Below the pieces are notes generated by a model. It did not search any database. It worked only from the letters and a program-made list of their open reading frames with translations, and had not been told where the DNA came from. Shown one piece after another: positions 36,903 to 58,605 of a DNA stretch of 64,000 bases; the stretch's first letter is position 1, and every line of letters begins with the position of its first letter. Made by a program: the position numbers and the translations under genes. This DNA is from Anaerolineales bacterium (GTDB lineage Bacteria > Chloroflexota > Anaerolineae > Anaerolineales > Villigracilaceae): the NCBI GenBank assembly GCA_041287425.1, contig JBEULG010000028.1, positions 36,299-100,298 of the forward strand. The letters are read 5' to 3'.

Positions 36903-37011
36903 GGCCGTTTGCAGAACCGCCCTCCCCGCCAATGTGCAGGGAGGGCGGAACTTTTCCGAAGAGGACAACGTCAGAGCAATGTCATTCCCTTTTGTTCTGA
37001 AGGAGAAAACC

Positions 37012-43428: not shown

Positions 43429-43435
43429 GATGAGT

Positions 43436-43532
43436 CGAGCGCGTATCCCTCCGCCGGTATGATCCGGATCAGGTTCTGCGGGTCGAAGGCTGGACCTTCC
43501 TCTCAGCCCGTGGACGGGCTCCCCGTTAGATT
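43436..43532 (-). promoter_or_regulatory. TPP (THI-box) riboswitch aptamer
   Basis: Minus strand: GGGGAGCCCGTCCACGGGCTGAGAGG...ACCCGCAGAACCTGATCCGGATCATACCGGCGGAGGGA. Contains the CUGAGA and ACCUGAUCYGGAUNAURCCRGCG core. Confidence 0.9.
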
Positions 43533-43541
43533 GTTGTCACT

Positions 43542-43570
43542 AGTATACGGCGAGGGGGCGCGGCTGTCAA
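43542..43570 (-). promoter_or_regulatory. Consensus promoter TTGACA-17-TATACT driving the riboswitch/thiamine operon
   Basis: Read directly on the minus strand. Confidence 0.7.
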
Positions 43571-43594: not shown

Positions 43595-44386
43595 TCAGCG
43601 CACGCGGCGTTTCCACTCGTCTTTCAATTGCAACTGGCGCGGGCTGTCGCCGGATATGAGCGCCAGGAAGTCGGTCAGCAGGCGGTTGAACTTGGCGCTT
43701 TCGTCAATCATCGGGAAATGGCCGGATTCATCCAGGATGATTTGGTGAATGCGTTCCGGCATGTCCATGATGCGCTCATAAGAGGGGGTTTGGATGGCGG
43801 GGTCATTCTGTCCATGGACGATGAGGCAGGGGGTGTTGAGAGTATCCATGAGCGGGAGGAGGCTGGCGCCGTCCAGGTCGTTGAAGGAGGCGACGATGGC
43901 GGCCGGGTCGGCTTTGGGGGCGTCGGTGCGGGCCGGTTCGGTGAGGGGGTCACGGCTCAGCAGCCAGTCGGCCAGATCGGCGGGGGAGGCGGGGGAACGC
44001 AGGCGAGCATTGACGGCGCCGATTTCGAACGGCACGCTGACGGCCATCAGGCGGTCGACCATCTCAGGAACGCGGCGGGCGAAGAGAATGCCGATCAGGG
44101 CACCCAGGCCGTGACCGACCAGAGCCACCTTGCCGATGCCCATCTCAACCATGAACTGTTCGAGCAGGGCGGTCTGTTTTTCGAGGCTGTAGCAGGAGGT
44201 GTCTTTGGCGGTGTCGCCGAATCCCCACAGGTCGAGGGCATAGGCGCGGAAAGAGATGGCCGCGGTCTGCATGGCGGGCACCCAGTAACGCCAGGAACCC
44301 ACCCAGCCGTGCAGGAAGATGATCGGACGGCCGCGCCCGAGCACCTCGTAATGCACAATTTTTTCGTCAATCAAGATCGCGCTCAT
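43595..44386 (-). CDS. Alpha/beta-hydrolase-fold protein lacking the nucleophile Ser (GHGLG)
   Basis: Colinear paralog of 56236..57033 (IVHYEVLGRGRPIIFLHGW...). Nucleophile elbow reads LVGHGLGAL. The Asp (HGQNDP) and His (SGHFPM) positions are retained. Confidence 0.85.
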   Translation of the reverse strand: MSAILIDEKIVHYEVLGRGRPIIFLHGWVGSWRYWVPAMQTAAISFRAYALDLWGFGDTAKDTSCYSLEKQTALLEQFMVEMGIGKVALVGHGLGALIGILFARRVPEMVDRLMAVSVPFEIGAVNARLRSPASPADLADWLLSRDPLTEPARTDAPKADPAAIVASFNDLDGASLLPLMDTLNTPCLIVHGQNDPAIQTPSYERIMDMPERIHQIILDESGHFPMIDESAKFNRLLTDFLALISGDSPRQLQLKDEWKRRVR

Positions 44387-44482
44387 GCCTCGTTCGGCTT
44401 CTTTTCAGAGGGTTGCAATCTTTGTTTTCGGACACCTGTTTCTGTCTGCCGCGCCGAATCGCCTCGATCAACACGCATTGGC

Positions 44483-44857
44483 TCATTTCTTGTGCTGGGC
44501 CAGGATGGTCTGAATGCGCGCCGTGAGTTGGTCGGGGGCAAAGGGTTTGAGCAGATATTCGGTCGCGCCCGCCGACAGCCCGGCCTGAATCTCGGCTTCC
44601 TGGCCCTTGGCGGAGAGGAACATGACCGGGATATCCTGCAGGGCCGGGTCGGCTTTGATGGCGGCGCAGGCTTCGTAGCCGGTCATGCGCGGCATGCGCA
44701 CGTCCATGAGAATCAGGTCCGGTTTTTCCTGCTGGGCGAGGGAGACGGCCTCTTCGCCATTGCTGGCGGCGACCACTTCGTAGCCGGCGAAGCGCAGGGT
44801 AAAGGTAATCAGGTCTCGAATGTCGCGTTCGTCTTCTGCAATCAAAATCTTTGCCAT
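44483..44857 (-). CDS. Single-domain CheY-like response regulator
   Basis: ORF 44483..44866. Likely start MAKILIAEDE (AGGAG upstream). Canonical DE, D (LILMDVRMP), S/T and K (LLKPF). Confidence 0.9.
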   Translation of the reverse strand: MAKILIAEDERDIRDLITFTLRFAGYEVVAASNGEEAVSLAQQEKPDLILMDVRMPRMTGYEACAAIKADPALQDIPVMFLSAKGQEAEIQAGLSAGATEYLLKPFAPDQLTARIQTILAQHKK

Positions 44858-44862
44858 GGATG

Positions 44863-47800
44863 TCACTCCTCAGCCTTGTAGACGGGTAAGGTAAACGAGA
44901 AGGTGCTCCCCTCACCCGGAATCCCCTTGCTGGTCATCCAGATGCGGCCCTGGTGCATTTCGACCAGTTGCTGGACGATGGACAGGCCCAAGCCGGTGCC
45001 GGGCGTCTCCAACACCAGCGGGTGCTCACCGCGGAAGAAACGGTCGAAGATGCGTTCCTGGTCAGCCAGGTCAATGCCGATGCCGTTGTCCTGGACATCT
45101 ACCTGGACCTCTTCGCCTTCCTGATGGATGCGGATGTGAATCTGGCCGTTGGCCGGGGTGTAGTGGTAAGCGTTGTCCATCAGGTTGTCGAGGATTTGGC
45201 GGACGCGCTCCTCGTCGCCGCGCACGAAGGGCAGGTCGGGCGGGGCGTCGAGGCTGAGGCCCATCGGGCGGTTCTCCTCCTGGGAGCGGCGCAACACATC
45301 GGCGAGGACGTCTTCGGCGATCTGGCGCAGGTCGAGCGGCTGCATGCTCAGGGTGATGCGGCCGGCCTCGATGCGCGAGATGTCGAGCAGGTCGTTGACC
45401 AGGATGCTCAGGCGGTCGGTGTTGGCGCGGACGATTTCGAGGAAATGTGTCTGGGTCTCGTTCAAGGCGCCCGCCGCGCCCATCAGCAGGATATCCACAT
45501 ATCCTTTAATAGAAGTCATCGGCGTGCGCAACTCGTGGCTGACGGTGGCGACGAACTCGGACTTGAGACGGTCCACCTCGACCTCGTGGGTGATATCGCG
45601 GAAGATGGAGACCGTGCCGAGGAATTCGTTGCGCCAGATGACCGGCGCCAGATGGACCAAGACCACCCGTCCGTTTTCGAGGGTCAACTGTTCGGCGTAG
45701 GTATCGCCGACCTGGTAACTGGCCGGGTTCTCCGACCAGGTGTGGATGGTCTGCATCCAGGTCTGGGCCGCTTTGCCGAACAGACCGACGAAATTTTCGA
45801 GCGGCTGGCCGCGCACTTGCTCGCCTTGCAGGTTGAGGATGCGTTCGGTGGAGGAGTTGACAAAGGTAATTTTGTTGTCGGGGTCGGTGACCAGGACGCC
45901 GTCGGCGACGGCCTCCAGAATCGCTTGCTGGCGGCTGGCTTCGACCTGTTGGTTGCGCAACATGCTGCCCAAACGCTCGGCCTGGTCGCGAATCAGTTCA
46001 TACAGGTGAGCGTTGTTGATGGCGACGGCCACCTGTGAGCCGATGGCCTGCACCAGGTTCATGTGGTCGGAGGTAAAGTAGCCCACCTGGCGATGGAAGA
46101 CCATGATGGCGCCGATGACTTCTTCGCCGACGGTCAGCGGGGCGGCGATGACGCTGCGATGCTGGGGGGCATTGGAAGGCAGTTTGACCCAGCGCTTGTC
46201 CTTGCGGACATCCTCCAGCAAAACGCTCTGGCGGTTCTTGATGACCCAACCGGCCAGCCCTTCGCCGACTTTGAGCGGGGTCGGGCGGGGGCCTTCGGTC
46301 ATGACGGGGGTGACGTAGCCGTAGCCGGCGCGGTACTGGATGGTATTGTCCTCGGGGTTGACCATCAGGATGCTGCCCTGTTCGGCGCCGATGGCGTCGT
46401 TGAGCAGCGCCAGGGTGCGGTTGAGCGCCCGATCCAGGTCGAGGCTGGCCGAGACCTCGGTCAGGATGCGCAGCAGGGTTTCGGTGTTGCGTTGCTCGCG
46501 GGCCAGTTCGGCGGTGCGTTCGATGACGCGTTGCTCGAGTTCCTCCGCCAGGCGGCGGGTCTCGGCAAACAGACGGCCGTTCTGGATGGCCACGGCGGCC
46601 TGGTTGGCCAGGGTGCTCAAAATCTGCTGGTCATCTTCGGTGTAAACGTTCGGTGTGTAACTCTGGGCCGAGAGCATACCGATGACTTTGCCGCCCAGGA
46701 TGATAGGCACAGCAACGATGGAGCGTGGCTGGCCCTGGCCATAGGTGCGGCCCTCGAAATTCTGGACGGCAGCCACATCGGCAATCAAGAGCGGTTCGCC
46801 GCTGGAGATAATCCGTCCGCTGAGGCCCTGTCCATACGGCAGACGCATGTTCGGGGCGCGTCCTTTGGGGTCCATCAGATAGACGCCTTCAATTTCATTG
46901 GCCTGTTCATCCAACAGGGCGATGACGAAGGACTCGGCTTCCATCATCTGGGCAGCGGCGCGGTGGATGGCAGCGTAGATTTCCTCGGGGTCGAGGCTGA
47001 GGGCAATCTCGTAGGAGGCGCGGTTGATGGTGGCCAGTTGTTCGGCGCGCGAGACGGTATCCTGATACAGCCGGGCGCTTTCGAGGGCGATGGCGGCCTG
47101 GTTGCTGACGGTGCGGGCCAGTTCGATTTCGGTCGGGGTGAAGCGGTAAGCCTCGCCTATGTGAACGAACATCAACGCCCGCAGGCTGGCTCCGCTGATG
47201 AGCGGCAGAACGAGCAGGGAGCGGGTGCCTTTGAGCAGTTCGGCCAGCGGTTCGAGGTCGGCCTCGGCTTCTACGTTGTCGGTGCTGAAGACGCCCAGCG
47301 AATCGCGCAGCCGCTCGAAGAGCGGGGCAGGCGGCAAGTTGTGGGGACGGAAACGGGCCGGTTCGGGGACGACCAGCCGCAGCACGGCTTCGCCACCGCG
47401 CCCAAAGGTGACGACCGAGACGCGGCGCGCCGAGAGGGCCTGACGCAGTTCCTCGGCCGTCAGGCGCAGAATCTGTTCCTCGCTCAGCGAACCACTCAGT
47501 TCGGCCGAGAGGCGGTTGAGCAAAGCCAGGCGCTGCGAGCGCTGATCGAGTTCGGCGGCGCGGCGCAGACTCTCTTCGTATAGGCGGGCATTTTCGAGCG
47601 CCACCGCCGCCTGGCTGGCAAACGTCGTCGCCAGTTGGGTGTATTCGACGGTGTAGAAGTGGGGCTCGGTCTTCTCGAGGGCCAGGACGCCAATCACCTC
47701 GCCCTTGGAAACCAGCGGCACGCCCAGCCAGGAAAGGCGCTCGGCGGCAACCAGGGCAGGGAAGCGGGGGTCGGCGCGCACGTCGCCGACGACGATGCCC

Positions 47801-50800
47801 TGCGAGGTGGTAATCATCTCGGTCAGCAGAGCCGAATCCTCGACCGCCACCTCCAGGCCGAGGCGCTCCTCGTCATCGGGGAAGCCGCGCGCCGCCGCCA
47901 CGACCATGTTCTTGCCTCGCCGCAGCCAGAGAATGGCCGTGTCGTAGGGCAGGACGGTCTTCAACTGGTCGAGCAGGCTGGCAATCAGTTCGCTGGACTG
48001 CAGGCTGGCCGCCATCTCGGCCGAGACCTCGGTGAGAGCCTGCAATTGGCCGGCGCGCTCCTGCGAAGCCTGCACCAGGCGGACGTTTTCGAGCGAGAGC
48101 GCCACTTGCTGAGTCAACGATTGCAGCAGGTTCTCATCGTCGGCCGAGAAGGCCGCCGGGGTGTTGAAGTTGTCGAGCACCAGCAAGCCCAGGATGCGCT
48201 CGCCGGTCTGAATGGGAACCAGCAGGCTGGAGACCGGCAGGCGTCCGCCGGTGGCTTCGCGGTACAGGAGCAGGTTCTCAGCCGCCAGGTTGTAGTCGCG
48301 GGCAAAGTTGACTTCTTCGACCCGGCGCGCTTTGCGCGCTTCGAAGACCTGGCCGGGCAAGGCTTCGCCGGAACGGAATGAAATTTGCAGCAGGCTGTCG
48401 ATGGCGGCATAATTGGCGGCCACGACCGGGACGAGGACCTGTTCCTGTTCTTTCCAGATTAACACCGCCCCGGCATGGGCGGCGGTGACCACCCGCAGGG
48501 CGCTGTCGAGCAGGGATTTGAGGATACTCTGCGGGTCGAGGCCGCTCAACTGGCGGCTGAAGTCGAGCAGGAGGTTGACTTCGCGCAGACGCCGGCGGGT
48601 TTCGGTCAGCAGGCTGATGTTTTGCAGGATGATGGAAACCTGACGGGCAATCTGATAATAGACCTGGCGGTCCTCCTCGGTCAGGGGAGGCATCGGCTCG
48701 AGGCTGATGGCCAGCACCCCCGCCACCGGTTTGTCGTCAATCAGGATGGGCAGGCAGATGAATCCTTTGGCATGCAGACTGCTGAGCAGGGGCGTATCTC
48801 GCCAGGTATCATCTTCCTCCAGATTCGTGACCAGCAGAGTTTCGCCTGTCTGCAGGCTGTAGCGCAGCGGGTTACGCTGGCCAAAGAGCGCCTCGGGGCT
48901 GGTGCCGCGCGGGATGTTGCCCAAGACATGCAGCAGCCGCGCTCCCTCCTCGGTGTTCTCGGCGACGATGGAGATGTGCATCTCCAGATGGGTCAGGATT
49001 TCGCGCCCCAGCGCCTGGAGGGCCGAGGGGCCGTCCACCTGGCGGTTGATGGTCTCGGTGATTTCCAATCCGGCGCGGATGCGGCGGCTGCGCCGCTCCA
49101 GGTTGCGGATGGCGATCATCTGCTCCAGGTCTTTGTGTAGCAGAACGGGCAGGTGGGTCTGGCTGATGGCCAGCAATTGCTGCTGGCGCTCCAGGCTGGT
49201 GGAGAGGGTCTCGACCTGGTTGCGGTAAGAGTTGAGACGGTGGACGCTTTGGATGAGCAGGGCAGCCTGGGCGGCGAAGATTTCGACCGTCTCGAGGGTG
49301 TTGCGGTTGGGGCGCAGGCCGTCGCGGGGCGCGTCCAGGCTGATGATTCCGATGGTGGCCCCTTCGTCGTCTTTGAGCGGGTAGAAGAGGGCATCTTCGG
49401 GGTGCCAGGCGTTGGGGGCCTGGGCGGTCGGCTCGCGCATGATGGTGACGATTTGAACGTCTTGCGAGAGGAGCGGGCGCTGGTCGTGCGGGATGAGGTA
49501 GCCCTCGCCGACCTTGAATTCGGGGCGCATCAACTGTTCGAGGGCCGAGTAGGGCTGCTGGCGGGCCTTCATCATGTTCAGGGTTTCGAGCGGCATGCCC
49601 ACCCCGGCGACGCGCCGCTGCATGCCGGTCTCTTTGTCCACCACGCTGATGAGCACCACCTGGAAGGGGGTCGCTTCCTGAATGCCGTAAGCCAGCGCCT
49701 CGAGCGATTCTTCCAGCGGACGGTCGAGGCCGATTTCGCGCGTGGTTTCGAAGAGTTTGGACAGCGTCTCGGCGCGCTGACGGAGCAGTTCGTTGCGGCT
49801 CACCTGTTCCTGATAGCGCTGGGCGTTGCCCAGGGCAATCGCCGCCTGGACGGCCAGGGTCATGATGATGTCCAGGGCCACCTGGTCGAAACGGTGGGGT
49901 TCGAAGGCATGCAAGTGAATCAGGCCGGCGGTTTTGCCCTGATAAGCAATGGGGACCACCAGAGCCGAAAGGACGCCCTCGTGCGCCGGCGAGTCGGCGC
50001 TTTGAGAGAAATCATCCACCAGGCGCGGCTCGCCGCGTTCGATGACCTCCCGCTCGAGGGGCGAGAGTTGCGCCGCCGGTTCATCTCCCAGGTGGAAGAC
50101 CGGGCGCGGATCGGCCTGCGAGGGGGCGTTCATGTCGAACAACAGGATGGTGCCGCAATCGGCGCGGGTGGTCCGCAGGCTTTCATCGTAGACCACCTGG
50201 AGCAAATACTGCCAGTCGAGGGTGGTGTTCAGTTCGCGGCCGATGCGGGTCATGGCCGTCAACTGGTCGACGCGCCGGCGCAGGCTCTCGTCGGTCTGTG
50301 AGGAGAGCGAGGCCCCCTCTACCGCGGCGGCCAGTTGCCCGGCAGCAGTCGAGACGACCTGTAAATCGTAATTGTTGAAGAAGTCGGCCTTCTTGCTGGC
50401 CAGCATCAGTTCCCCCAGGCTGCGCTCGCGCACGATGAGGGGAACGATGATGACCGATTCCATCTTCAACTTGTCCACCAGCGGCCGATAGACAGACAGC
50501 AGCCGCTCGTCGGCCGAGAGGTTGCTCGACAGGAAGGAGCGCTGGCTGCCCGTGACGGTGAAATGGAATTGGGGGTCATCCACATAGATGCGGCTGAAGG
50601 AGTCCACCGCTTCGGCCGAGACGCCGAAGAGCGAATCCAGGTGCAGGCGCGAGATGCCCTGGGCTTCGTTCAACAGGAAGACCGCCCCCATGTCGGCCTG
50701 AATCAGACGGGCCAGTTCCTGAACGGTATAGCGCAGCATCTCATCGGCGGTGGCCGAGGAACTCGTCAGGCTGGCGATGCGGCGCAGGGCCTCGGCGCGC

Positions 50801-52302
50801 TGGGCGCGTTGACGCGCTTGCTGCACCAGGGCGACGTTGTCGATGATGGGCGCCGTCTGGTTGGCGATGATGTTGAGCAAACGCATCTCGTCGGACGAAA
50901 ATGCACTCTCCCGGACGCGGTGATTGGCGATTTGCAGGAAACCGAGCGAACGTCCCGCCGAGACGAGGGGGATGAGGGCGACATCGCGCCAGGAAGCGGC
51001 CCGGGCAAAATCCTGGAAGCCCATCTCCCGCCAGAGTTCATCCTCCTGGGCGTTGCGGGTGATGAGCGCCTCGCGGCTGAGCAGGCGCTCCTCGAGCACG
51101 CCGCCGGCCGGGACGGGCAGGCGGTACAGGTCCACGAATTGGGCCGGCATGCCGATGAACGGCACCTGTCCCTCCAGCGAGCGGCGGCTCTCGTTGTAGA
51201 GGAGAAAGCCAAGCACCTGGACGTCCAGCAGCGGGGCGACGCTCTGCACCAGGCGGGTGAAGAGGTCGCGCGGGTCGCGGGTGGCGCCAATCGCCTGCGC
51301 CAGGTTGGCCAGGCCGCTCAACTCGGCGGTGCGGCGTTGTTCGTCTTCGAGCAATTGGGCGTTGCGCAAGGCGACGGCAGCCTGACCGGCAATCAACTGC
51401 AGGATGTCCATGTCCTCGCGCGAGAAGGCCTCGGCGCTGGCCAGCCCGACCGACAGAGTGCCCACTACCTCGTTCTGGATGAGGAGCGGCAGACCGATGT
51501 AGGAGCGGACGGGGGCTTGCTCTTCGCCCTCCTCGTAGGGAATCTCGGCGTAGGCACGCGTGTCTGGGATGAACAAGGGCTTGCGCTGTTCGAGCAGGTA
51601 AGCCGTATAACCCGTCGCCGGGCGCGGCAAACTCTTCTCGAGGGAGGCGGCGGCGCGAGGTCCGCTGGCGAAGCGGTAGACGACGACCTTGGCGTCGGCG
51701 GCGTTCCACAAGCCGACCTCCAGCAGGTCGGCCGGCACGAGACGCTGGACGTTTTCCATCAAGGTCTGGATGGTGGCCGTCAAGCCCCGGCTGACTGCCA
51801 GGCTCTGGCTGAACTCGGTCAGGATTTTGAGGGCCGAGCCGGAAACCTCGGCCGACTCGGGGGCGAGGGCAGAGGCGACGTCGACCCGGCGCAGGCTGAC
51901 CAGCAGGGCGGGAGTCGGGCCGGGGATGGCATAGGAGATGCCGTCCACCGGCCGGCCGTTGATGGAGAAGCGCGCCCAGCCCTCGGCGGCGCACAATTTC
52001 AAGAAATCCTCGCTGGGGCGGATACGCCGGGCCAGCAGTTCGAGGTTGGGCAGTTCTCCCTCGCGCAGGTTGAAATATTGCTGGGCCAGGCGGTTCATGT
52101 ATCCCACCCGTCCGCCAGCCTGCACCAGCAAGACGGCGTAATCATGCCCTCCCTGGTCAGGCAGGAAGGGCAGGAAGGAGGCCTTGGGGAGAGGCCGGTG
52201 CAGGCGGGGAATCAAACGCGCCAAGCCCCAGACCAGGAAAAAGAAGAGAAACCCGGTCAGGAGCAGGCCGATTCCCAGCAACACCGACTGCCCGGAAAAC
52301 AT
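44863..52302 (-). CDS. Giant (2479 aa) membrane-anchored sensor histidine kinase: about 11 tandem GAF domains, PAS, HisKA, HATPase_c
   Basis: N-terminal transmembrane segment. Recurrent GAF-like modules are separated by coiled-coil linkers (LLEDEQRRTAEL, LYEESLRRAAEL, LFAETRRLAEEL and others). H-box VSHELRTPMTSI. N/G boxes DNLMDNAYHYT, DNGIGI, GTGLGLSIV. The GAF count is a by-eye estimate. Confidence 0.9.
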   Translation of the reverse strand: MFSGQSVLLGIGLLLTGFLFFFLVWGLARLIPRLHRPLPKASFLPFLPDQGGHDYAVLLVQAGGRVGYMNRLAQQYFNLREGELPNLELLARRIRPSEDFLKLCAAEGWARFSINGRPVDGISYAIPGPTPALLVSLRRVDVASALAPESAEVSGSALKILTEFSQSLAVSRGLTATIQTLMENVQRLVPADLLEVGLWNAADAKVVVYRFASGPRAAASLEKSLPRPATGYTAYLLEQRKPLFIPDTRAYAEIPYEEGEEQAPVRSYIGLPLLIQNEVVGTLSVGLASAEAFSREDMDILQLIAGQAAVALRNAQLLEDEQRRTAELSGLANLAQAIGATRDPRDLFTRLVQSVAPLLDVQVLGFLLYNESRRSLEGQVPFIGMPAQFVDLYRLPVPAGGVLEERLLSREALITRNAQEDELWREMGFQDFARAASWRDVALIPLVSAGRSLGFLQIANHRVRESAFSSDEMRLLNIIANQTAPIIDNVALVQQARQRAQRAEALRRIASLTSSSATADEMLRYTVQELARLIQADMGAVFLLNEAQGISRLHLDSLFGVSAEAVDSFSRIYVDDPQFHFTVTGSQRSFLSSNLSADERLLSVYRPLVDKLKMESVIIVPLIVRERSLGELMLASKKADFFNNYDLQVVSTAAGQLAAAVEGASLSSQTDESLRRRVDQLTAMTRIGRELNTTLDWQYLLQVVYDESLRTTRADCGTILLFDMNAPSQADPRPVFHLGDEPAAQLSPLEREVIERGEPRLVDDFSQSADSPAHEGVLSALVVPIAYQGKTAGLIHLHAFEPHRFDQVALDIIMTLAVQAAIALGNAQRYQEQVSRNELLRQRAETLSKLFETTREIGLDRPLEESLEALAYGIQEATPFQVVLISVVDKETGMQRRVAGVGMPLETLNMMKARQQPYSALEQLMRPEFKVGEGYLIPHDQRPLLSQDVQIVTIMREPTAQAPNAWHPEDALFYPLKDDEGATIGIISLDAPRDGLRPNRNTLETVEIFAAQAALLIQSVHRLNSYRNQVETLSTSLERQQQLLAISQTHLPVLLHKDLEQMIAIRNLERRSRRIRAGLEITETINRQVDGPSALQALGREILTHLEMHISIVAENTEEGARLLHVLGNIPRGTSPEALFGQRNPLRYSLQTGETLLVTNLEEDDTWRDTPLLSSLHAKGFICLPILIDDKPVAGVLAISLEPMPPLTEEDRQVYYQIARQVSIILQNISLLTETRRRLREVNLLLDFSRQLSGLDPQSILKSLLDSALRVVTAAHAGAVLIWKEQEQVLVPVVAANYAAIDSLLQISFRSGEALPGQVFEARKARRVEEVNFARDYNLAAENLLLYREATGGRLPVSSLLVPIQTGERILGLLVLDNFNTPAAFSADDENLLQSLTQQVALSLENVRLVQASQERAGQLQALTEVSAEMAASLQSSELIASLLDQLKTVLPYDTAILWLRRGKNMVVAAARGFPDDEERLGLEVAVEDSALLTEMITTSQGIVVGDVRADPRFPALVAAERLSWLGVPLVSKGEVIGVLALEKTEPHFYTVEYTQLATTFASQAAVALENARLYEESLRRAAELDQRSQRLALLNRLSAELSGSLSEEQILRLTAEELRQALSARRVSVVTFGRGGEAVLRLVVPEPARFRPHNLPPAPLFERLRDSLGVFSTDNVEAEADLEPLAELLKGTRSLLVLPLISGASLRALMFVHIGEAYRFTPTEIELARTVSNQAAIALESARLYQDTVSRAEQLATINRASYEIALSLDPEEIYAAIHRAAAQMMEAESFVIALLDEQANEIEGVYLMDPKGRAPNMRLPYGQGLSGRIISSGEPLLIADVAAVQNFEGRTYGQGQPRSIVAVPIILGGKVIGMLSAQSYTPNVYTEDDQQILSTLANQAAVAIQNGRLFAETRRLAEELEQRVIERTAELAREQRNTETLLRILTEVSASLDLDRALNRTLALLNDAIGAEQGSILMVNPEDNTIQYRAGYGYVTPVMTEGPRPTPLKVGEGLAGWVIKNRQSVLLEDVRKDKRWVKLPSNAPQHRSVIAAPLTVGEEVIGAIMVFHRQVGYFTSDHMNLVQAIGSQVAVAINNAHLYELIRDQAERLGSMLRNQQVEASRQQAILEAVADGVLVTDPDNKITFVNSSTERILNLQGEQVRGQPLENFVGLFGKAAQTWMQTIHTWSENPASYQVGDTYAEQLTLENGRVVLVHLAPVIWRNEFLGTVSIFRDITHEVEVDRLKSEFVATVSHELRTPMTSIKGYVDILLMGAAGALNETQTHFLEIVRANTDRLSILVNDLLDISRIEAGRITLSMQPLDLRQIAEDVLADVLRRSQEENRPMGLSLDAPPDLPFVRGDEERVRQILDNLMDNAYHYTPANGQIHIRIHQEGEEVQVDVQDNGIGIDLADQERIFDRFFRGEHPLVLETPGTGLGLSIVQQLVEMHQGRIWMTSKGIPGEGSTFSFTLPVYKAEE

Positions 52303-52311
52303 AGGCGAGGA

Positions 52312-53220
52312 TTATCCTTTGGTCGGCAGAGGCGGCATATCCTGACGGCGCACCTCGGCGGCCAGTTCGGTAATCTCGCGGATATCGGCAAAAGTCTGTT
52401 CTTTGGGCGTGACGATTCCCACCGAGAGGGTCATCAAGGGCGTCTTTTCGGTCACGCCGCCGGGGCCAGAGGTCAGAATATATCCCTGCTGGCGGTCGAT
52501 GAAGTTGTAGTGCGTCAGCACTTCCTCGGCGAAGCGCGCCTTGAGGCGTTGACGGATGTTCTCGGCCGCGCTCTCGGAGGTGATGATGATGAAATTGTCG
52601 CCGCCAGCATGGCCGATGAAGTCGGTGGCATTGCCGAGTTCGTCCACCACTTCGCCCATCAGCATGGCGGTGAAGCGCAGGACGTCATCGCCGGCCACGA
52701 AGCCATAGACATCGTTGAACTGCGAAAAGTAATTGATGCGGATGTCCATGTACGCCCAGCCGCCCTGGCGGATGGTCTGCCGCAATTGTTCCTCGATCAG
52801 GCGGCCGGCCGGCAGGCCAGAACGCGGGTCGGTCAGCGCCTCGCGCTCGGCGCGGCGGATGGCGCCCTGGACGCGCAGTTTCAGTTCCTCGATGTCGAAG
52901 GGCTTGGTGATGTAATCATCCGCACCCAGTTCGAGGCCCTGCAACTTGTCGCTGCGCTCGTCCTTCTGCGTGAGGAAAATCACCGGGATGTGGCTGGTGC
53001 GCGTGTTCGTCCGCAGGGTGCGGCAAACCTCGTAGCCATCAATGTCTGGCAGCATGATGTCCAGCACGATGAGATGAGGCAAGACCTGACGCGTCTTTTC
53101 GAGGGCGTCGGCCCCCCGCGGGGCCACGTCCACGTCGTAGCCCAGCCCGCTGAAGTAAATCTTCAGCATATTGGAGATGTCATGATCATCTTCGACGACC
53201 AACAGGCGAGATTTTCCCAT
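52312..53220 (-). CDS. Response regulator with a GGDEF-like domain carrying GGDNF
   Basis: Canonical REC (LLVVEDDHD, IVLDIMLPDIDG, ITKPF), then a GGDEF-fold region: DPRSGLPAGR..YMDIRINYFSQFNDVYGFVAGDDVL..IGHAGGDNFIIIT. Confidence 0.85.
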   Translation of the reverse strand: MGKSRLLVVEDDHDISNMLKIYFSGLGYDVDVAPRGADALEKTRQVLPHLIVLDIMLPDIDGYEVCRTLRTNTRTSHIPVIFLTQKDERSDKLQGLELGADDYITKPFDIEELKLRVQGAIRRAEREALTDPRSGLPAGRLIEEQLRQTIRQGGWAYMDIRINYFSQFNDVYGFVAGDDVLRFTAMLMGEVVDELGNATDFIGHAGGDNFIIITSESAAENIRQRLKARFAEEVLTHYNFIDRQQGYILTSGPGGVTEKTPLMTLSVGIVTPKEQTFADIREITELAAEVRRQDMPPLPTKG

Positions 53221-53232
53221 AGTGCCTCCCGT

Positions 53233-54324
53233 TCAACTGCGAATACGGCGGGCTTGGCGCGCCGCCTGGCGTATGGCCTGAATCTGTTCTTCTGTCACTG
53301 CGCGCTCGAAGGAGCGGAAACCGCTCAGGCGGAAGCCGTGCTTGGCCGCCAGGGCGGAAATCTCCTCGACTCGTTCACGCGCGATGTTTTTGCCCAAAGT
53401 GTAATCCTCGAAACGGCCCTCCAGGGCCAGCGTCATCGTCTCCGCCATACAGGCATAGGCCTTGCCCGGCGGGAAACCGAAGTTAAAGTGGAAGTCGACG
53501 GGTCCCGGCACATCCACCATGCCGCCGTCTATCACTAATATATCATGTCTGACCGCTGCCACCATTGCAGAAACGTCACGAGGGCGGGCCACATCGCACA
53601 CCACGCTGCCCGGCTGGAGGTGCTCTGGATAGATGAGCTCGTGCACGGCGCTGGTGACAGTCAGAATCAACTGCGCCTGGGCGATGTCGTTGACGCGCGT
53701 GCTCGTCCGCAGGGCAGCCCGGCCGGGACCCTGCAACTGTTCGCGCAGGGCTTCGAGCGTCTCCTGGCGGCGGCCGATGAGAATCAACTCGGCTACATCG
53801 TCGGCCAACAGGTCGGCACAAACCCGGCCGATCGAGCCGGTTGCGCCGACCACGGCAGCCGTCGCCTGGCGGAGGGGAATCTCCATCACGCGCGCCGCCT
53901 CGCGCACGGCTGCGACGGCGATTGCCACCGTGTACGAATCGCCGGTTGTGACGGGGATGTCGAGCGCCCGGGCAATCGTCAGGCCGGCATCGCCGATGAC
54001 GGAGGTGAAGGCACCCAGCCCCAGGATTTGGGCGCCGAGTCTTTCTGCAAGGCGGCCCGTCTGAATAATCTTACGATAAACTGTCTGTTCGCGCAACTCC
54101 ATCATGCGGCGCGGTGTATAGGGGCAGGCGATGAACCAGCCGCGAATCTCCTTGCCGGTCGCCTGCGAGGTGATGCCGGTAATCTCGGAAATATAGACGG
54201 GCGGGAAAAAAGTCGAAAAGAAATCTATCTGCCGCTCGCTGAGCAGGCGGCCAAGCAGGGGGAATTTCCGACTGACATCCCGCTTGGGATCAATCGGGTG
54301 GATGATGAAGGCAAAGGTGTCCAC
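53233..54324 (-). CDS. Acyl-ACP-reductase (cyanobacterial AAR)-like NAD(P)-dependent oxidoreductase
   Basis: Blocks align by eye with AAR: FAFIIHP.., LGAFTSVIGD, VTTGDSYT, ATAAVVGATGSIGRVCADLL, and YACMAETMTLALEG (Cys at the AAR catalytic-Cys position). Confidence 0.7.
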   Translation of the reverse strand: MDTFAFIIHPIDPKRDVSRKFPLLGRLLSERQIDFFSTFFPPVYISEITGITSQATGKEIRGWFIACPYTPRRMMELREQTVYRKIIQTGRLAERLGAQILGLGAFTSVIGDAGLTIARALDIPVTTGDSYTVAIAVAAVREAARVMEIPLRQATAAVVGATGSIGRVCADLLADDVAELILIGRRQETLEALREQLQGPGRAALRTSTRVNDIAQAQLILTVTSAVHELIYPEHLQPGSVVCDVARPRDVSAMVAAVRHDILVIDGGMVDVPGPVDFHFNFGFPPGKAYACMAETMTLALEGRFEDYTLGKNIARERVEEISALAAKHGFRLSGFRSFERAVTEEQIQAIRQAARQARRIRS

Positions 54325-54328
54325 GCGT

Positions 54329-55606
54329 TTACCACGAGGTCAGATCCGCTTCGCCGCGGCGGGGATACAGGCGCGGGTGTTTGCTGGCATCTTTGAGTTT
54401 GTGGTGGTCGCTCTGTTCGTACTTGACATCCCGGTCGATGATGCGGCGTTCGGCCGAACCGAACAGCACCACGTCCGACTCGATGGTGCGGGCGGGGAAG
54501 ACGATCATACCGGCGCCGATGCGGCAGTTGTGGCCGACGCATCCGCCCAGCACCGGCCGGTTGGCAAATGCCAGTTGGTCGCTGCCATCCAGCGCTCGGA
54601 TGGGCGAGGGAATCAAATTATAATCGGTAAACGTGTTACCGGCGCCGATGAAGGTGTTGCGCCCCACGACGCACATTTGCAGGCAGGTGTTCTGGGCGAC
54701 CATGCCGTTTTCCATGATGGTGGTCATGAACAGAGAAGCCCGGAAAGGCAGGAAGGTGCCATCGCCCACCACCGAGAGCATCAACTGACAGCCCTGCGAG
54801 ATGTTGACGTTGCTGCCGATGATGCAGTTCTCGATGACGGCCCCGGCGTTGATGGTGACGTTGTCGCCGATGGTGGTCGGGCCGTGGATGATGGCAGTGG
54901 GGTCAATGACGCAGTTCTTGCCGACCTTGACGAGTTTGGAACACTCCAGCAATTGCTTGCCCTCGTAGATGGCGGTTGCCAGAACGCCCAGTTTGAACCA
55001 CAGGTCGCGGGCCAGGCGTTCTTCGAAGCGCGCCCCGCGGGCGAACAGGCCGAAGACGCCGTCGGCGATGAAGATGTGCGTCCAGCAGTCGATGGCCATC
55101 ATCGCCCGCAGCGGGACCTGATAGACCAGGTCGCCGCTTTCGGTGGCCATGTAGGTCGGCACGTGATAATAGCCGATTTCGCGCGCCTGCATGTCGATCA
55201 CCAGGGGTTCGACATCGGCTTCCGGCCCATTGGGGTAATACCATAGGTCAGCGTAGTACAGATTGCCGGCCGGGGTATAGGAGACGGACAAGGGCAAGGC
55301 ATGTTCACGGAAGGCGGCGTCGTCCAGCGAAAAGGCAGCCCGGACGGCGCGGTTGCGCTTTTTGGCCTGGGTCAGGAATTCGGTGATGTAGTATTCATCG
55401 AAGAACAGATTGTCGCGGTAGACAATCATCGGCTCGCGCGAAATCGGCAGGTGGGCGCCGGGTGGGAGTTCGATTTCACGGTCCACGTAGGGAGCCAGCA
55501 GGTCGCGCTGATTCAGCCACAGCGGCTTGTTCTGGATGCGCAAGTCGCGCGCCGGTTCGTTGAAAGGCGGAATGTGGCGGGGAGCCTGGAGGATGACCTT
55601 GAGCAT
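54329..55606 (-). CDS. Left-handed beta-helix (hexapeptide-repeat) protein, transferase-like
   Basis: C-terminal half is rich in imperfect hexapeptide repeats (IGDNVTINAGAVIENCIIGSNVNISQGC...VGRNTFIGAGNTF...VGHNCRIGAGMIV). The N-terminal ~220 aa are unassigned. Confidence 0.7.
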   Translation of the reverse strand: MLKVILQAPRHIPPFNEPARDLRIQNKPLWLNQRDLLAPYVDREIELPPGAHLPISREPMIVYRDNLFFDEYYITEFLTQAKKRNRAVRAAFSLDDAAFREHALPLSVSYTPAGNLYYADLWYYPNGPEADVEPLVIDMQAREIGYYHVPTYMATESGDLVYQVPLRAMMAIDCWTHIFIADGVFGLFARGARFEERLARDLWFKLGVLATAIYEGKQLLECSKLVKVGKNCVIDPTAIIHGPTTIGDNVTINAGAVIENCIIGSNVNISQGCQLMLSVVGDGTFLPFRASLFMTTIMENGMVAQNTCLQMCVVGRNTFIGAGNTFTDYNLIPSPIRALDGSDQLAFANRPVLGGCVGHNCRIGAGMIVFPARTIESDVVLFGSAERRIIDRDVKYEQSDHHKLKDASKHPRLYPRRGEADLTSW

Positions 55607-55609
55607 AGA

Positions 55610-56239
55610 TTATCCGATTGGGGTCCGATTAATTATTATTGTACACGCGCTGTCCCCAGACGCAATACATTTCGTCTCTTCCACCTGGAAGTATTTTCCC
55701 CCGCTGAGCCAGTACAAAGACTCTTGCAGCAAGCCGACCGCCAGGTGACAAGCCGGGCCATCGGTCTGGCGCTGCCAGCAGAGCGGACAGCGTTCGATGT
55801 GCCAGTAGAGGTTGTGTTCGTCTGATTCCAGGCGCACCCGTTGGTCGGTGAAATCGTTGAACAGGGCTGCCAGCGCCTCGCTGCCGGTCTTGATTTTGGT
55901 CGCCAGCGGCAAGAGGCGGAACGCCAGGTCGGTCAGTCCCAGTTCGGGGCCGAATTCTCGCAGGCCATATTTCAGACAGGCGCGTCCGGCGCGCAGCGCC
56001 AGTCCGCGCCCGCCGCGCGGGCCGTAGGCGGCCTCCAGGCTGGCTTGCAGCCGGCTGACCTGCTCGAAGGGAAATTTGCGGTCGTGGTTGTGGGGAGGAT
56101 AATGCCCAATATATTCCGAAAGAGAGGCCAGGTGGAGGACGGCGTTGATGCCATTCCGCCCCAGAATCTCTTCCATGGCGAGGAGAATGATGCGCCCCAT
56201 CGAGTTGGGGTAGAAGTAGGCCTCTGCAGGTGTTTTCAT
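55610..56239 (-). CDS. V4R-domain (4-vinyl-reductase-type small-molecule-binding) protein
   Basis: C-terminal ERCPLCWQRQTDGPACHLAVGLLQESLYWLSGGKYFQVEETKCIASGDSACTIII fits the V4R Cys pattern. ATGA overlap with the upstream hydrolase gene. Confidence 0.75.
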   Translation of the reverse strand: MKTPAEAYFYPNSMGRIILLAMEEILGRNGINAVLHLASLSEYIGHYPPHNHDRKFPFEQVSRLQASLEAAYGPRGGRGLALRAGRACLKYGLREFGPELGLTDLAFRLLPLATKIKTGSEALAALFNDFTDQRVRLESDEHNLYWHIERCPLCWQRQTDGPACHLAVGLLQESLYWLSGGKYFQVEETKCIASGDSACTIIINRTPIG

Positions 56240-57033
56240 CCGGCAGGTGTCTCTTCGTCCAGGAATTGTTTCAGTTTGTGCATGAAAGGCTCGGGGTCAT
56301 CGAGCATGATGAAGTGGCCGGCCTGTTCGAAGCGCTCGATGCGGGCGTGAGGGACGCCCTCCAACAAGGGTCGCCATTGCATGGGATGGACGATGATGTC
56401 CTTGTCCCCATACATTCCCATCACCGGGATGCGAATCTGGTCGAGCAGGGGGCGCAAGTCGGTGCGCCGCAGCGAAGCGATGCTGAGCAGGAAAGACTCG
56501 AGGGTGGTGCGTGACAGGTCTTTGTCCATCATGTCGGGGAAGCGGGGGTCTTTGCAGATAAAAGGAGAAGCCACCCTCATCCCCAGCCGGAAGGCCCACA
56601 TCATGTTGAACAGCATGACCGCGATCGGCCGCCGCCCGGCCATCTTCAACGCCCAGGCCAGCGAGGACCCGACGATGGGCGAGCCGACGACAACGACTTT
56701 CCTGGCCCGCTGGGGATATTGAATGGCCACCGACAGGCTGACCGTCCCGCCCATGCTGTGACCGACCAGCGGCGCCGAGTCGATGCCCAGGTGGTTCATG
56801 AATTGGTCCACCAGGCTGACAAAATCCTGAACGGCATAGGTCTCACGTTTTTTGCCCGATTCGCCAAATCCCCAAAAATCGAGCGCGTAGGTGCGGTAGA
56901 AACGCCCCAAATACGTCATCGTCTCCTGCCACAGGCCCCACGAACCGAGCCAGCCATGCAACAGGATGACCGGACGTCCGCGTCCATAGACTTCGTAATG
57001 TACAATACCCTGGTCGGTGGTTATCGAGGACAC
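56236..57033 (-). CDS. Alpha/beta hydrolase with an intact Ser-Asp-His triad
   Basis: HGWLGSW, nucleophile elbow VGHSMGG, YGDKD, and AGHFIM. Confidence 0.88.
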   Translation of the reverse strand: MSSITTDQGIVHYEVYGRGRPVILLHGWLGSWGLWQETMTYLGRFYRTYALDFWGFGESGKKRETYAVQDFVSLVDQFMNHLGIDSAPLVGHSMGGTVSLSVAIQYPQRARKVVVVGSPIVGSSLAWALKMAGRRPIAVMLFNMMWAFRLGMRVASPFICKDPRFPDMMDKDLSRTTLESFLLSIASLRRTDLRPLLDQIRIPVMGMYGDKDIIVHPMQWRPLLEGVPHARIERFEQAGHFIMLDDPEPFMHKLKQFLDEETPAG

Positions 57034-57057
57034 GGTGTTTACAACGAGATGGAGAGA

Positions 57058-57600
57058 TTATTTCTCCCCACCCTCCATCTCAGCCAGGATGCTGTAGAGC
57101 AATTCGAGCAGCACCGTCTTGACTGAGTCGCGGTCGGTGGCCACACAGGGCAAGAATTTGACTTTCGAATCGAGCCGCAGGGCGAGGCGCATATCCTCCA
57201 ATTCCCAGGCGTCTTTCTTGTCCTGTTTGTTGGCGGCCACCACGTAAGGGGTCGGGGCGTAGGCGCGGAAGGTCTCCAGAATCGAGCGCGCCTCGCGAAA
57301 AGTCTCTGGACGGGTGCTGTCCACCAGGACGATGAAGCCCAACATCCCCTCCGAGAGAATCTCCCACATAAAGTCGAAGCGCTTTTGGCCGGGGGTGCCA
57401 AACAAATACAAGACTAGGTCCTCGTCCACCGTGATGCGGCCGAAGTCCATCGCCACGGTGGTGGCCTCTTTGACCGTCCGCTCCAGGGCGCTGGAGATTT
57501 TTCGCTCGGTCGAAACCACATCAATCTCGCTGACCGAACGGATGAATTCCGTCTTGCCGGCGTTGAAAGGACCTGTAACGACCATTTTGACCGTTTGCAT
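57058..57600 (-). CDS. Small Ras-like GTPase (COG2229/CvnD/MglA-related ATP/GTP-binding protein)
   Basis: ORF 57058..57618 (TTG). Likely start MQTVKMVVTGPFNAGKT (ATG 57600, GAGG upstream). G1 GPFNAGKT, G3 GTPGQKRF, G4 ANKQD. Confidence 0.85.
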   Translation of the reverse strand: MQTVKMVVTGPFNAGKTEFIRSVSEIDVVSTERKISSALERTVKEATTVAMDFGRITVDEDLVLYLFGTPGQKRFDFMWEILSEGMLGFIVLVDSTRPETFREARSILETFRAYAPTPYVVAANKQDKKDAWELEDMRLALRLDSKVKFLPCVATDRDSVKTVLLELLYSILAEMEGGEK

Positions 57601-57621
57601 GATGACTATCCTCGACAAAAT

Positions 57622-58437
57622 TTAGAGCGACCGAATGCGGTTGATCAGGCGGTTGACCAGAGATTTCTGCTCATCCTTGTTCTCGGTCGGGAACATGCGC
57701 GCCGGTGGAGGCGGGGGCGCTCCCTCCGGACGACAAATCTCTACCAAGCCGGCCTGCAGCAACCCGTAAACAATCCGGCGGATTTCCAGGTCGTTCATCT
57801 TGGTTGCGTTGGCAATCTGGCGGATGGTGTTCTTGGGGTTGATGTAGGAAACCACCCGCCACTCTTCCACGCTCAAATTGACCTTGCGCAGATTCGCATC
57901 CGGCCGGTCGGTGAACTTGAGCGCCATATCCAGGCTGGGGATTTCATCCTGCAACTGCTCCCACTCGCGCAATTGCCGCGAACCCTCGATGATCAAATTC
58001 TCGAGGTCCAGACGGACGTTGATGCGGTCTTCAGGCGGCAGTTGATCGTTTTCGAAGCGGAAAAATCCCTCCACCCAGGTAAACAATCGCTGGACGATAT
58101 CGGTGAAATGCTGTTGCAAATTCGTGAGGATGTCTTCCTGGGTGACGTAGCCGGCATTGATGAGCAGGAGGCCGAGTTCCTTGTCGGAAATGGAACCGGC
58201 CCGCTGCTGGATGGCTCGATATTGACCGGCAGACAACTTGTTGGCTTTGTACAGAATGGACGCTAGCCCTCCATCTTCGCGGCCAATCTGCGCGTAGGCT
58301 AGTTTCCCGTCACGGAACGACACCTGGGCAGTCTCGCTGGGACCTTCGACAATCAGCGTCCCCGTTTTGCGGGCCAGGTTGATAAGATTGAGGAGTTGCG
58401 TTATCGTAAAATCACGCAGATTACCACGCAGCGCCAT
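57622..58437 (-). CDS. DUF4388/PATAN-domain protein with a C-terminal wHTH-like region
   Basis: ORF 57622..58470. Likely start MALRGNLRDFTITQLLNLINL (typical DUF4388 N-terminus). The start could also be 58470. Confidence 0.75.
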   Translation of the reverse strand: MALRGNLRDFTITQLLNLINLARKTGTLIVEGPSETAQVSFRDGKLAYAQIGREDGGLASILYKANKLSAGQYRAIQQRAGSISDKELGLLLINAGYVTQEDILTNLQQHFTDIVQRLFTWVEGFFRFENDQLPPEDRINVRLDLENLIIEGSRQLREWEQLQDEIPSLDMALKFTDRPDANLRKVNLSVEEWRVVSYINPKNTIRQIANATKMNDLEIRRIVYGLLQAGLVEICRPEGAPPPPPARMFPTENKDEQKSLVNRLINRIRSL

Positions 58438-58481
58438 GGCAGCCTCAGAGCATGTCCCTGGAAGGGACACAAGGTAAAATG

Positions 58482-58510
58482 ATTATACTTGTAAGGGTGT
58501 CTTGCGTCAA
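58482..58510 (-). promoter_or_regulatory. Near-consensus promoter TTGACG-17-TATAAT heading the ten-gene operon
   Basis: Read directly on the minus strand in an AT-rich spacer. Confidence 0.65.
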
Positions 58511-58555
58511 ACCTTCGAAGCCTAGTAATTCTGTAAGGCTGGAGAGCGTGACATG

Positions 58556-58588
58556 ATGAACCCGTTCTCTTGTAGGGAACGGGTTCAT
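58556..58588 (-). terminator. Perfect 12-bp-stem hairpin after the PBP gene, no clear U-tract
   Basis: ATGAACCCGTTC-9 nt-GAACGGGTTCAT, 18 nt downstream of the PBP stop. Confidence 0.45.
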
Positions 58589-58605
58589 CCTAAAAGCAGG
58601 GCGGC

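Follow-up and report, generated by a model that had tools for sequence, protein, structure and literature searches.

What controls a small GTPase of the MglA family that is encoded together with a PATAN protein, a V4R protein, a very long histidine kinase and four enzyme-like proteins, and which of these genes belong together? The question is raised by a ten-gene operon on the minus strand of the window, which is the whole 64,000-nucleotide stretch of contig JBEULG010000028.1 that was analyzed, from a member of the Anaerolineales (Chloroflexota). Sediments, sludge and soils are rich in Anaerolineae, which are genetically almost unstudied; to our knowledge, none of the proteins of the operon has been characterized. 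The operon is real and strongly conserved, and it is a variant of prokaryotic small-GTPase signalling, the mechanism of which we infer. It belongs to the most strongly conserved multi-gene signalling loci of Anaerolineae, with a GTPase that is about 88% and a PATAN protein that is about 77% identical across orders. Judged by the gene content of related loci, its core is the triad of PATAN, GTPase and V4R genes, usually accompanied by a CheY gene, to which the phosphorelay adds a second layer and a set of four enzyme-like genes a third. The triad is placed at the core because L047 (with CheY) and L162 (triad alone) keep it without the outer layers, and L172 keeps it with the phosphorelay and with no enzyme-like gene between V4R and CheY.

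Relatives were collected from GTDB r232, each species being represented by a single genome, with a V4R homologue alignment as the query; 284 stretches that encode a relative were obtained. Of these, 80 loci were retrieved, and their gene content was determined by tblastn with the ten window proteins. Metagenome contigs were scanned as well, with g10 as the anchor. All median identities are those to the window proteins.

Layout of the operon and its promoter

The promoter and the ten genes, numbered g01 to g10 in the direction of transcription, are as follows.

58482-58510, minus strand: operon promoter of the sigma-70 type, TTGACG-17-TATAAT, read directly (11 of 12 consensus positions)
57622-58437, minus strand: g01, PATAN (DUF4388) protein of 271 amino acids (aa), which contains a helical insertion and ends in a winged-helix-like domain followed by a basic helix (Pfam DUF4388, 9e-28)
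57058-57600, minus strand: g02, MglA-family small GTPase of the GTPGQ type, 180 aa (Pfam ATP_bind_1, 1e-20; Ras, 3e-10)
56236-57033, minus strand: g03, alpha/beta hydrolase with an intact nucleophile elbow, GHSMGG, 265 aa (Pfam Abhydrolase_1, 2.5e-32)
55610-56239, minus strand: g04, stand-alone V4R protein, 209 aa (Pfam V4R, 1e-8; MetOD1, 2e-5)
54329-55606, minus strand: g05, GlmU/GMPPA-like protein of 425 aa, an N-terminal nucleotidyltransferase-like fold followed by a left-handed beta-helix (LbH) (Pfam Hexapep, 1e-11)
53233-54324, minus strand: g06, NAD(P)H thioester reductase of the AAR/PigE-N type, 363 aa (NCBIfam PigE N-terminal domain, 9e-65; AcACP_reductase, 2e-37)
52312-53220, minus strand: g07, response regulator with REC and a degenerate GGDEF domain, GGDNF (Pfam Response_reg, 1e-28; GGDEF, 2e-12)
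44863-52302, minus strand: g08, membrane-anchored histidine kinase of 2479 aa with one N-terminal transmembrane helix, 11 GAF domains, PAS, HisKA and HATPase_c (Pfam)
44483-44866, minus strand: g09, single-domain CheY-like receiver (Pfam Response_reg, 3e-32)
43595-44386, minus strand: g10, nucleophile-less paralogue of g03 with the alpha/beta-hydrolase fold (Pfam Abhydrolase_6, 1.5e-18)

These ten co-directional open reading frames (ORFs) fill positions 43595-58437. The junctions from g01 to g10 measure, in order, 21, 24, -4, 3, 4, 12, 9, -4 and 96 nt, so that g03/g04 and g08/g09 overlap by 4 nt and the remaining gaps are of 3 to 24 nt apart from the 96 nt before g10. The initial annotation, which was made from the letters of the window, had described ten minus-strand genes running from a TTGACG-17-TATAAT promoter, with junctions between a 4-nt overlap and a 24-nt gap and a single gap of 96 nt, and all of this is borne out. 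Its domain assignments, including those of PATAN, V4R and GTPase, were likewise reproduced by profile searches with Pfam and NCBIfam. The gene anatomy needed correction at two starts: g01 most likely begins at ATG 58437 rather than at GTG 58470, and g02 at ATG 57600, since homologues begin there and the distance from the promoter to the ATG is fixed.

Within the 17 kb scanned, only two sites matched the promoter consensus at 11 of 12 positions (58510-58482 and 43570-43542), and no second strong promoter was found within the operon. The promoter motif is kept in 60 of 66 related loci, about 40 nt 5' of the PATAN start codon. Its 17-nt spacer is also conserved, reading TTGACGCATG-N7-CCTTGCATGTATAAT with two GCATG motifs (GCATG..TTGCATG) in the window and in the orthologous sites of L002-L081. 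The conservation of motif and spacer across loci is strong evidence that 58482-58510 is a real promoter, and the spacer suggests an operator that possibly overlaps it. We regard it as almost certain that a single sigma-70-type promoter drives the ten genes as a conserved and co-transcribed cluster. The gap before g10 (44387-44482) is peculiar to the window lineage, most relatives having about 6 nt between g09 and g10, and neither a promoter-like nor a terminator-like site was found in it.

Two further features mark the ends of the operon.

58555-58589, minus strand: 13-bp perfect inverted repeat, GATGAACCCGTTC...GAACGGGTTCATC, 3' of the upstream PBP1-type gene and without a T-run (sequence read)
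43429-43570, minus strand: promoter (43570-43542, 11 of 12) and thiamine pyrophosphate (TPP) riboswitch (RF00059) of a separate thiamine unit

The inverted repeat is a likely transcript boundary; the upstream gene (58606-61395), which encodes a transglycosylase/penicillin-binding protein (PBP) of the PBP1 type, ends at 58606. At the other end, the riboswitch (43429-43535, 71 bits) is followed by genes for thiamin pyrophosphokinase (TPK) and an ABC transporter, in agreement with the earlier assignment of the next promoter to a thiamine operon. No terminator was found between the operon and the thiamine unit, and read-through from the operon would therefore end at the riboswitch terminator. The riboswitch region (43407-43570, minus strand) includes a terminator-like hairpin (43428-43407) and begins just 25 nt past the last stop codon of the operon.

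Conservation of the triad and of the outer layers

All 80 retrieved loci come from metagenome-assembled genomes of Chloroflexota (Anaerolineales, Anaerolineae, Thermoflexales and Ca. Villigracilis), bar a few names that are evidently mis-binned, and the device is typical of Anaerolineae and Thermoflexia. The neighbourhood proposed from the single locus was recovered, with the genes co-localized and not scattered: g01-g08 occur in the same order and on the same strand in 40 of about 52 fully evaluable species-representative loci, nine further loci lack the reductase only and about ten lack the first hydrolase. In the metagenome scan, each of the 47 loci with a length of 4 kb or more has g08, g09 and g10 side by side, g06-g10 are adjacent wherever the contig extends that far, and all ten genes are present in L090. 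Conservation does not extend into the upstream flank (20 of 60 loci at most).

The comparison did not uphold the notion of an indivisible ten-gene unit. The minimal form, L047, consists of PATAN, GTPase, V4R and CheY genes only and lies between the genes for TrpRS and MetRS; L013, L028 and L029 look alike, and in all four a g09-type CheY gene sits right after V4R. A triad without further layers is found in L162, between glycosyltransferase and thiamine diphosphate (ThDP)-enzyme genes, with a V4R protein 40% and a GTPase 84% identical to g04 and g02, respectively. GTPase and V4R genes are adjacent in L169, and over these two loci the identities are 40-43% for V4R and 81-84% for the GTPase. In L172 the triad is followed by a REC-GGDEF gene, a 1936-aa multi-GAF kinase and a CheY gene; the interval from V4R to CheY is free of enzyme-like genes, and the contig stops before any g10 position. 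Loci of the Thermoflexales type keep g01-g07, with an inserted gene for a periplasmic binding protein and a kinase of the dCache-HAMP-multiGAF type. The V4R/hydrolase pair that had been proposed is not obligate either, as V4R stays with the GTPase where the hydrolase is absent; in six loci without g03, g10 was not found.

Such modularity would also be expected from independent modules that are juxtaposed, namely a PATAN-GTPase-V4R switch, a metabolic cassette (g03, g05 and g06) and an ordinary two-component system (g07-g09 with g10), held by lineage synteny and shared transcription. Any layer may be absent while others persist, and the sensor part of the kinase differs between lineages. Furthermore, this lineage tends to keep its gene order in general: the thiamine unit, which is separate and unrelated, also lies behind g10 in 22 of 29 loci, at times with intervening genes (L092 and L120), so that synteny alone is weak evidence for functional coupling. 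However, the 4-nt overlaps, the other short gaps and the single conserved promoter argue against independence, as does the position of V4R among the enzyme-like genes. The shift of CheY to a place beside V4R in minimal loci is hard to explain without a link between triad and phosphorelay, and three of the supposed enzymes are conserved pseudoenzymes (see below), which do not fit a plain metabolic cassette. On this evidence, a set of independent modules is unlikely.

The proposed GTPase switch and its predicted inputs

The GTPase is the most conserved gene of the operon (median identity 88%), and its closest match in the PDB is MglA of Thermus thermophilus (E = 6e-7, whole-length alignment). 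It carries the P-loop GPF[SN]AGKT, the G3 motif GTPGQ in 76 of 76 loci and the G4 motif NKQD in 75 of 76, and because these motifs are conserved, the protein looks active. Its switch I reads KEATTVAMDFG, with Thr-Thr in place of the intrinsic Arg of group 1. MglA groups 2-5, within which conservon CvnD falls, have GTPGQ and Thr, whereas group 1 has TVPGQ and the intrinsic Arg (PMC4316618); the invariant GTPGQ and the Thr-Thr thus assign g02 to groups 2-5. A signalling role centred on the GTPase is highly probable.

In g01, the PATAN profile PF14332 (DUF4388) is matched at full length (E = 9e-28), interrupted by the helical insertion, and identity across loci ranges from 49 to 99% (median 77%). 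The AlphaFold2 model, with a mean predicted local distance difference test score (pLDDT) of 69.5, places the PATAN strands and helical insertion first, followed by a long helix, a strand-helix-helix-helix-strand unit (residues 172-235) and the basic terminal helix. Foldseek aligned residues 172-235 with winged-helix domains at a probability of 1.0 and non-significant E-values (E >= 0.02); a weak match to MarR_2 (E = 0.014) was also obtained, and the PATAN part had no significant analogue in the PDB. The initial annotation had called the output unclear as no DNA-binding response regulator lies in the operon; that absence holds, but the modelled winged-helix-like domain leaves DNA-binding output through g01 open. 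The last ~17 residues (57622-57680), KSLVNRLINRIRSL, form a conserved basic amphipathic helix, which could be a membrane-targeting or partner-binding peptide. A hidden Roadblock or longin fold in PATAN, which would provide a 'missing MglB', was considered and is unsupported; matches to GATOR1/NPRL and RPC39 stem from the C-terminal winged helix alone (E >= 0.02). That PATAN can be an output domain is seen in PixE, whose PATAN domain by itself binds PilB1 and PilC and switches phototaxis (bioRxiv 10.1101/2021.06.11.447907).

The V4R protein scores 35.5 bits against PF02830 (cut-off 31) and has a median identity of 65%. Six residues are invariant (C151, C154, C164, E188, C191 and C199), and the stretch C164..E188..C191..C199 aligns to the phenol-sensor domain of MopR/PoxR, where it presumably carries the Zn ligands of those sensors. 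An extra motif, CP[LVIMF]CW (CPxCW), is present in 82 of 82 loci. Proteins of the V4R/TRAPPC3 fold have hydrophobic ligand cavities and bind hydrophobic ligands (PMC10933270), and V4R is homologous to Bet3 (PMC2253512, PMC10933270).

A V4R profile search of 1.84 billion representative proteins gave 316 clusters at E <= 1e-30, and L162 was reached through divergent members of this set. Within the same CPxCW subfamily, V4R is fused to TIR, to a Ser/Thr kinase (two tandem genes in L167), to a kinase plus TIR and to CHAT-FHA (P0410, P0437, P0442, P0463, P0478 and P0493; loci L163, L164-L166 and L167). These fusion genes have no GTPase or PATAN neighbours, and no V4R-GTPase or V4R-PATAN fusion was found among the longer V4R relatives. 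By their domain composition, the fusion proteins are an uncharacterized set of putative V4R-regulated effectors. Because of these partners, V4R may be viewed as a regulatory input domain, and the data fit a portable sensory or regulatory subfamily. That V4R is a sensor coupled to the GTPase is given an even chance. The fusions to TIR, CHAT-FHA and Ser/Thr kinase could also point to an anti-phage or conflict system. This is hardly credible for the operon, in which PADLOC models match no protein beyond generic REC and no effector domain is present; furthermore, the locus is stable, vertically inherited and situated among housekeeping genes, and its very high conservation (that of the GTPase above all) is unlike that of fast-evolving defence islands.

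The phosphorelay comprises the kinase and two receivers. The sequence of g08 shows an N-terminal hydrophobic stretch and the H-box SHELRTP, and its HATPase_c domain reaches residue 2474 of 2479 (C-terminus ...FTLPVYKAEE); g08 is the least conserved gene of the operon (median identity 57%). The phospho-acceptor Asp is kept in g09 in 78 of 78 loci (median identity 75%) and also in g07 (78%). The GGDEF domain of g07 reads GGDNF in 51 of 69 loci and GG[DE]EF in none, the other variants also being without the fourth-position Glu, and NATD stands at the position of the RxxD I-site. A role for g07 as c-di-GMP synthase or I-site receptor is therefore rejected.

Among the enzyme-like proteins, g03 retains GHSMGG in 68 of 68 loci, in agreement with the GxSxG signature of serine hydrolases, and looks like an active Ser hydrolase (median identity 78.5%). 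Its paralogue g10, which is 30% identical to it and has a median identity of 60%, has GHGLG in place of the expected GHSMG; 79 of 80 homologues carry Gly at the position of the Ser, and g10 is a likely pseudoenzyme. The best PDB relatives of the two hydrolases are generic esterases, epoxide hydrolases and meta-cleavage product (MCP) hydrolases, and with these classes nearest, receptor hydrolases of the RsbQ/KAI2/D14 type found no specific support. The reductase g06 matches 4ppm (7.5e-33) and 6jzq (1.5e-31) with the catalytic Cys aligned, has YACMAE in 57 of 58 loci and keeps the NAD(P) motif GATGxIG; with Cys and cofactor motif kept, it looks active (median identity 77%). Since it scores below both NCBIfam equivalog cut-offs (129 against 450 and 219 against 850), it is a family member and not an orthologue of AAR or PigE. 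The homologous domain of PigE reduces a thioester to an aldehyde (PMC8341465).

The 'beta-helix protein' g05 does contain an LbH; it is preceded by a GlmU/GMPPA-like nucleotidyltransferase fold, and an LpxA-like protein is not what was found. The Hexapep match is restricted to residues 226-259, the N-terminal half is without a Pfam match, and the AlphaFold2 model (pLDDT 60) is confident for residues 1-140 only. The best Foldseek matches were ST0452, GlmU and GMPPA/B (E = 4e-8, low TM-score). The N-terminus reads VILQAPRHIPPFNEPARDL at the position of the Gly-rich nucleoside triphosphate (NTP) loop (GxGTR), invariantly in relatives; with this loop replaced by the invariant PRHIPPFNEPARDL, g05 departs from the signature of sugar-1-phosphate nucleotidyltransferases (median identity 74%). 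An LpxA/LpxD-type lipid acyltransferase is unsupported, the fold search favouring the GlmU/ST0452/GMPPA architecture. Of the two lipid-type enzymes in the initial annotation, only the reductase is thus supported as lipid- or acyl-related.

Judged by their motifs, three domains are degenerate and conserved: the g10 hydrolase, the GGDNF domain of g07 and g05 with its missing NTP loop. They argue for an accessory layer that is regulatory, at least in part, and not metabolic. This bears on a further explanation, by which the operon would chiefly make a lipid or envelope compound of acyl or aldehyde origin, V4R would carry a hydrophobic intermediate (as proposed for BchJ-type V4R) and the GTPase and two-component genes would only regulate. 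The active-looking sites of the thioester reductase and Ser hydrolase agree with a biosynthetic operon, as do the LbH fold, which is typical of acyl/acetyl transferases, and the binding of hydrophobic ligands by V4R-fold proteins (PMC10933270). However, the reductase is missing from nine otherwise complete loci, all enzyme-like genes are missing from L047, L162 and L172, g05 has lost its NTP loop and g10 its nucleophile, and the signalling genes are the most conserved and invariant ones. Biosynthesis as the main function is accordingly judged highly unlikely.

The best overall explanation, which we hold to be slightly short of an even chance, is a layered MglA-family GTPase switch regulated by V4R and PATAN. 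V4R would be its ligand-sensing input and would bind a hydrophobic or acyl-derived molecule; V4R and PATAN would stand in for Roadblock/MglB and DUF742 and jointly determine whether the GTPase is in its GTP or its GDP state. The PATAN protein would serve as adaptor or output, the role that PATAN has in PatA-type regulators, and phospho-CheY may act on it in trans, as a 'split PatA'. The 11-GAF-PAS kinase would provide a second, cytoplasmic input and phosphorylate CheY and the REC-GGDNF protein. Synthesis, modification or removal of the V4R ligand would fall to the hydrolase pair, the GlmU/GMPPA-like protein and the thioester reductase, the last of which would convert an acyl thioester to an aldehyde; a supply of the ligand by these enzymes is conceivable and rather doubtful. 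The output would most likely be exerted at the protein level, on localization, polarity or envelope processes of the filamentous hosts, and a non-transcriptional output of this kind is proposed tentatively, with the balance against it.

Several observations weigh against a layered switch. All of its functional steps are inferred, and we know of no GAP (GTPase-activating protein) or GEF (guanine nucleotide exchange factor) activity of either PATAN or bacterial V4R proteins. No MglB/Roadblock gene was found in the cluster or its conserved flanks, to which the search was confined, and one may exist elsewhere in the genome. Of five divergent V4R relatives that are informative, two lack a GTPase or PATAN gene beside them, and L024 has lost g01-g03. 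The enzyme-like genes are dispensable in several lineages, so that if they make the ligand, another source would be needed there. In addition, the g01 model is of medium confidence with non-significant Foldseek E-values, and the stickiness of gene order noted above applies here as well.

The genes that flank the operon in the window (PBP, FolP, AIM24, LexA, CorA, SIMPL, NurA and methylase) include no Roadblock, pilus or motility genes. LexA is encoded at 39125-39802 and a tRNA at 16625-16712. An N6/N4 DNA methylase adjoins a NurA-domain nuclease, and a tandem pair of SIMPL/DUF541 paralogues comes next (33285-36039, minus strand, and 36099-37737, plus strand). An ORF at 27624-28541 (plus strand) matches the PI3/PI4-kinase-like catalytic domain (E = 8e-8), which is unusual for a bacterium. 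Two long ORFs with high third-position GC content (GC3), at 28950-31901 (minus strand, 983 aa) and 24797-26212 (minus strand, 471 aa), have no Pfam match at E <= 1e-5 and are either unknown proteins or mis-called frames.

Comparison with known systems

A close parallel in overall design is the conservon (CvnA-D; Mfp in mycobacteria), which likewise unites a sensor histidine kinase and a GTPGQ MglA-family GTPase in one operon without a DNA-binding response regulator (PMC4316618, PMC13621833, PMC13343842). Because such a regulator is absent, the GTPase is the probable hub in both. One could therefore regard the kinase as the direct upstream partner of the GTPase, the GTPase as the output and the rest as accessories analogous to CvnB, CvnC and CvnF. 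The GTPGQ G3 motif common to MglA groups 2-5 including CvnD, the co-operonic sensor kinase of most loci and the shared want of a DNA-binding regulator (PMC4316618) are consistent with this. However, no Robl_LC7 (Roadblock/CvnB) or DUF742 (CvnC) match was found by Pfam in the ten proteins and their immediate neighbours, nor is there an extra conserved flank gene; CvnC is a GEF (PMC11343762), and the window operon has PATAN and V4R as constant partners instead. The G4 motif is NKQD, whereas that of conservon group 2 MglA is NxFD (PMC4316618). Whereas the CvnA kinase has a C-terminal LPxR extension, g08 is a bona fide HisKA/HATPase kinase that terminates with HATPase_c, flanked by two cognate receivers as ordinary phosphotransfer partners, and L047 and L162 have the triad without a kinase. 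The hosts also differ, being Actinomycetota for conservons and Chloroflexota here. The conservon arrangement of kinase and GTPase is thus quite unlikely, and by its protein complement the operon is not a conservon. The conservon-like hybrid of the initial annotation stands in so far as a small-GTPase module is joined to a two-component system, and the lack of Roadblock and DUF742 domains that it reported holds for every operon protein; membership in the conservons does not.

The MglA-MglB(-RomRX) switch of Myxococcus and Thermus provides the closest solved structure of g02, that of T. thermophilus MglA. MglA-family genes occur occasionally near PATAN genes, and the PATAN-MglA association is already known (PMC4316618, citing Makarova 2006). 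However, the MglA of that switch belongs to group 1 (TVPGQ, intrinsic Arg), whereas g02 has GTPGQ and Thr-Thr, and the cluster of the window has no MglB in or adjoining it and no type IV pilus or gliding genes nearby. PatA-type regulators of cyanobacteria (PatA, PixG, PixE and PilG) also combine PATAN and a receiver under a sensory kinase pathway, with PATAN as the output (bioRxiv 10.1101/2021.06.11.447907). In these, REC is fused C-terminally to PATAN, whereas g01 has no REC, which resides in the separate g09 and g07; furthermore, the PATAN domain of the window is fused to a winged-helix-like domain and is always followed by a GTPase gene.

Like g04, the V4R sensors MopR, PoxR and DmpR have a V4R domain, and the Cys/Glu/Cys/Cys stretch of their Zn site is matched in g04. 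In those proteins V4R is fused to a sigma-54 activator, whereas g04 is stand-alone, has about 210 aa and carries the extra invariant CPxCW. In Bet3/TRAPPC3 of the TRAPP Rab-GEF (eukaryotic and Asgard), a Bet3-family protein acts directly on a Ras-superfamily GTPase (PMC2253512, PMC10152722), whereas such action of g04 is putative and the longin or Roadblock partner of TRAPP is absent from the operon. By analogy, V4R might be a direct, ligand-gated regulator of the GTPase (GEF-like or GDI-like, i.e. resembling a guanine nucleotide dissociation inhibitor) together with PATAN, a bacterial counterpart of Bet3/TRAPP-Rab; this is an unlikely proposal. If it were true, the partnership of the V4R/Bet3 fold with Ras-superfamily GTPases would be older than eukaryotes, and would be controlled here by an acyl-derived small molecule from neighbouring enzymes. 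A study of Asgard archaea reported no operon link of GTPases with TRAPPC3/V4R genes (PMC10933270). As the Bet3 subunits of TRAPP have their prokaryotic relative in V4R, the tight and conserved GTPase-V4R gene pair offers a concrete system in which the co-working of both folds in prokaryotes can be studied.

By fold search, g05 has the same two-domain architecture as the LbH-bearing pseudo-pyrophosphorylases that have a regulatory role (GMPPA, eIF2B gamma and epsilon), and its nucleotide loop is degenerate. However, the likeness in sequence is confined to the hexapeptide repeats and the model is of low confidence, so a regulatory role is drawn by analogy only. With three conserved pseudoenzyme domains, the operon is a candidate for the study of ligand-sensing dead enzymes in bacterial signalling.

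In the open-access literature, no description was found of the PATAN-GTPase-V4R combination, nor any account that makes V4R the constant third partner, describes the layered operon or shows how widely it occurs in Anaerolineae, and no paper was found in which 'PATAN domain' and 'V4R' occur together; the earlier remark that no system of such composition had been described agrees with this. The cluster of Anaerolinea thermolimosa is listed merely as neighbours of the nitrite reductase gene nirS (PMC8756737). Overall, the operon works like the conservon/AGPS and MglA systems and is a member of neither. If the proposed switch is true, PATAN plus V4R would constitute a third partner set for prokaryotic MglA-family GTPases, beside MglB/RomRX and the Roadblock/DUF742 pair of conservons.

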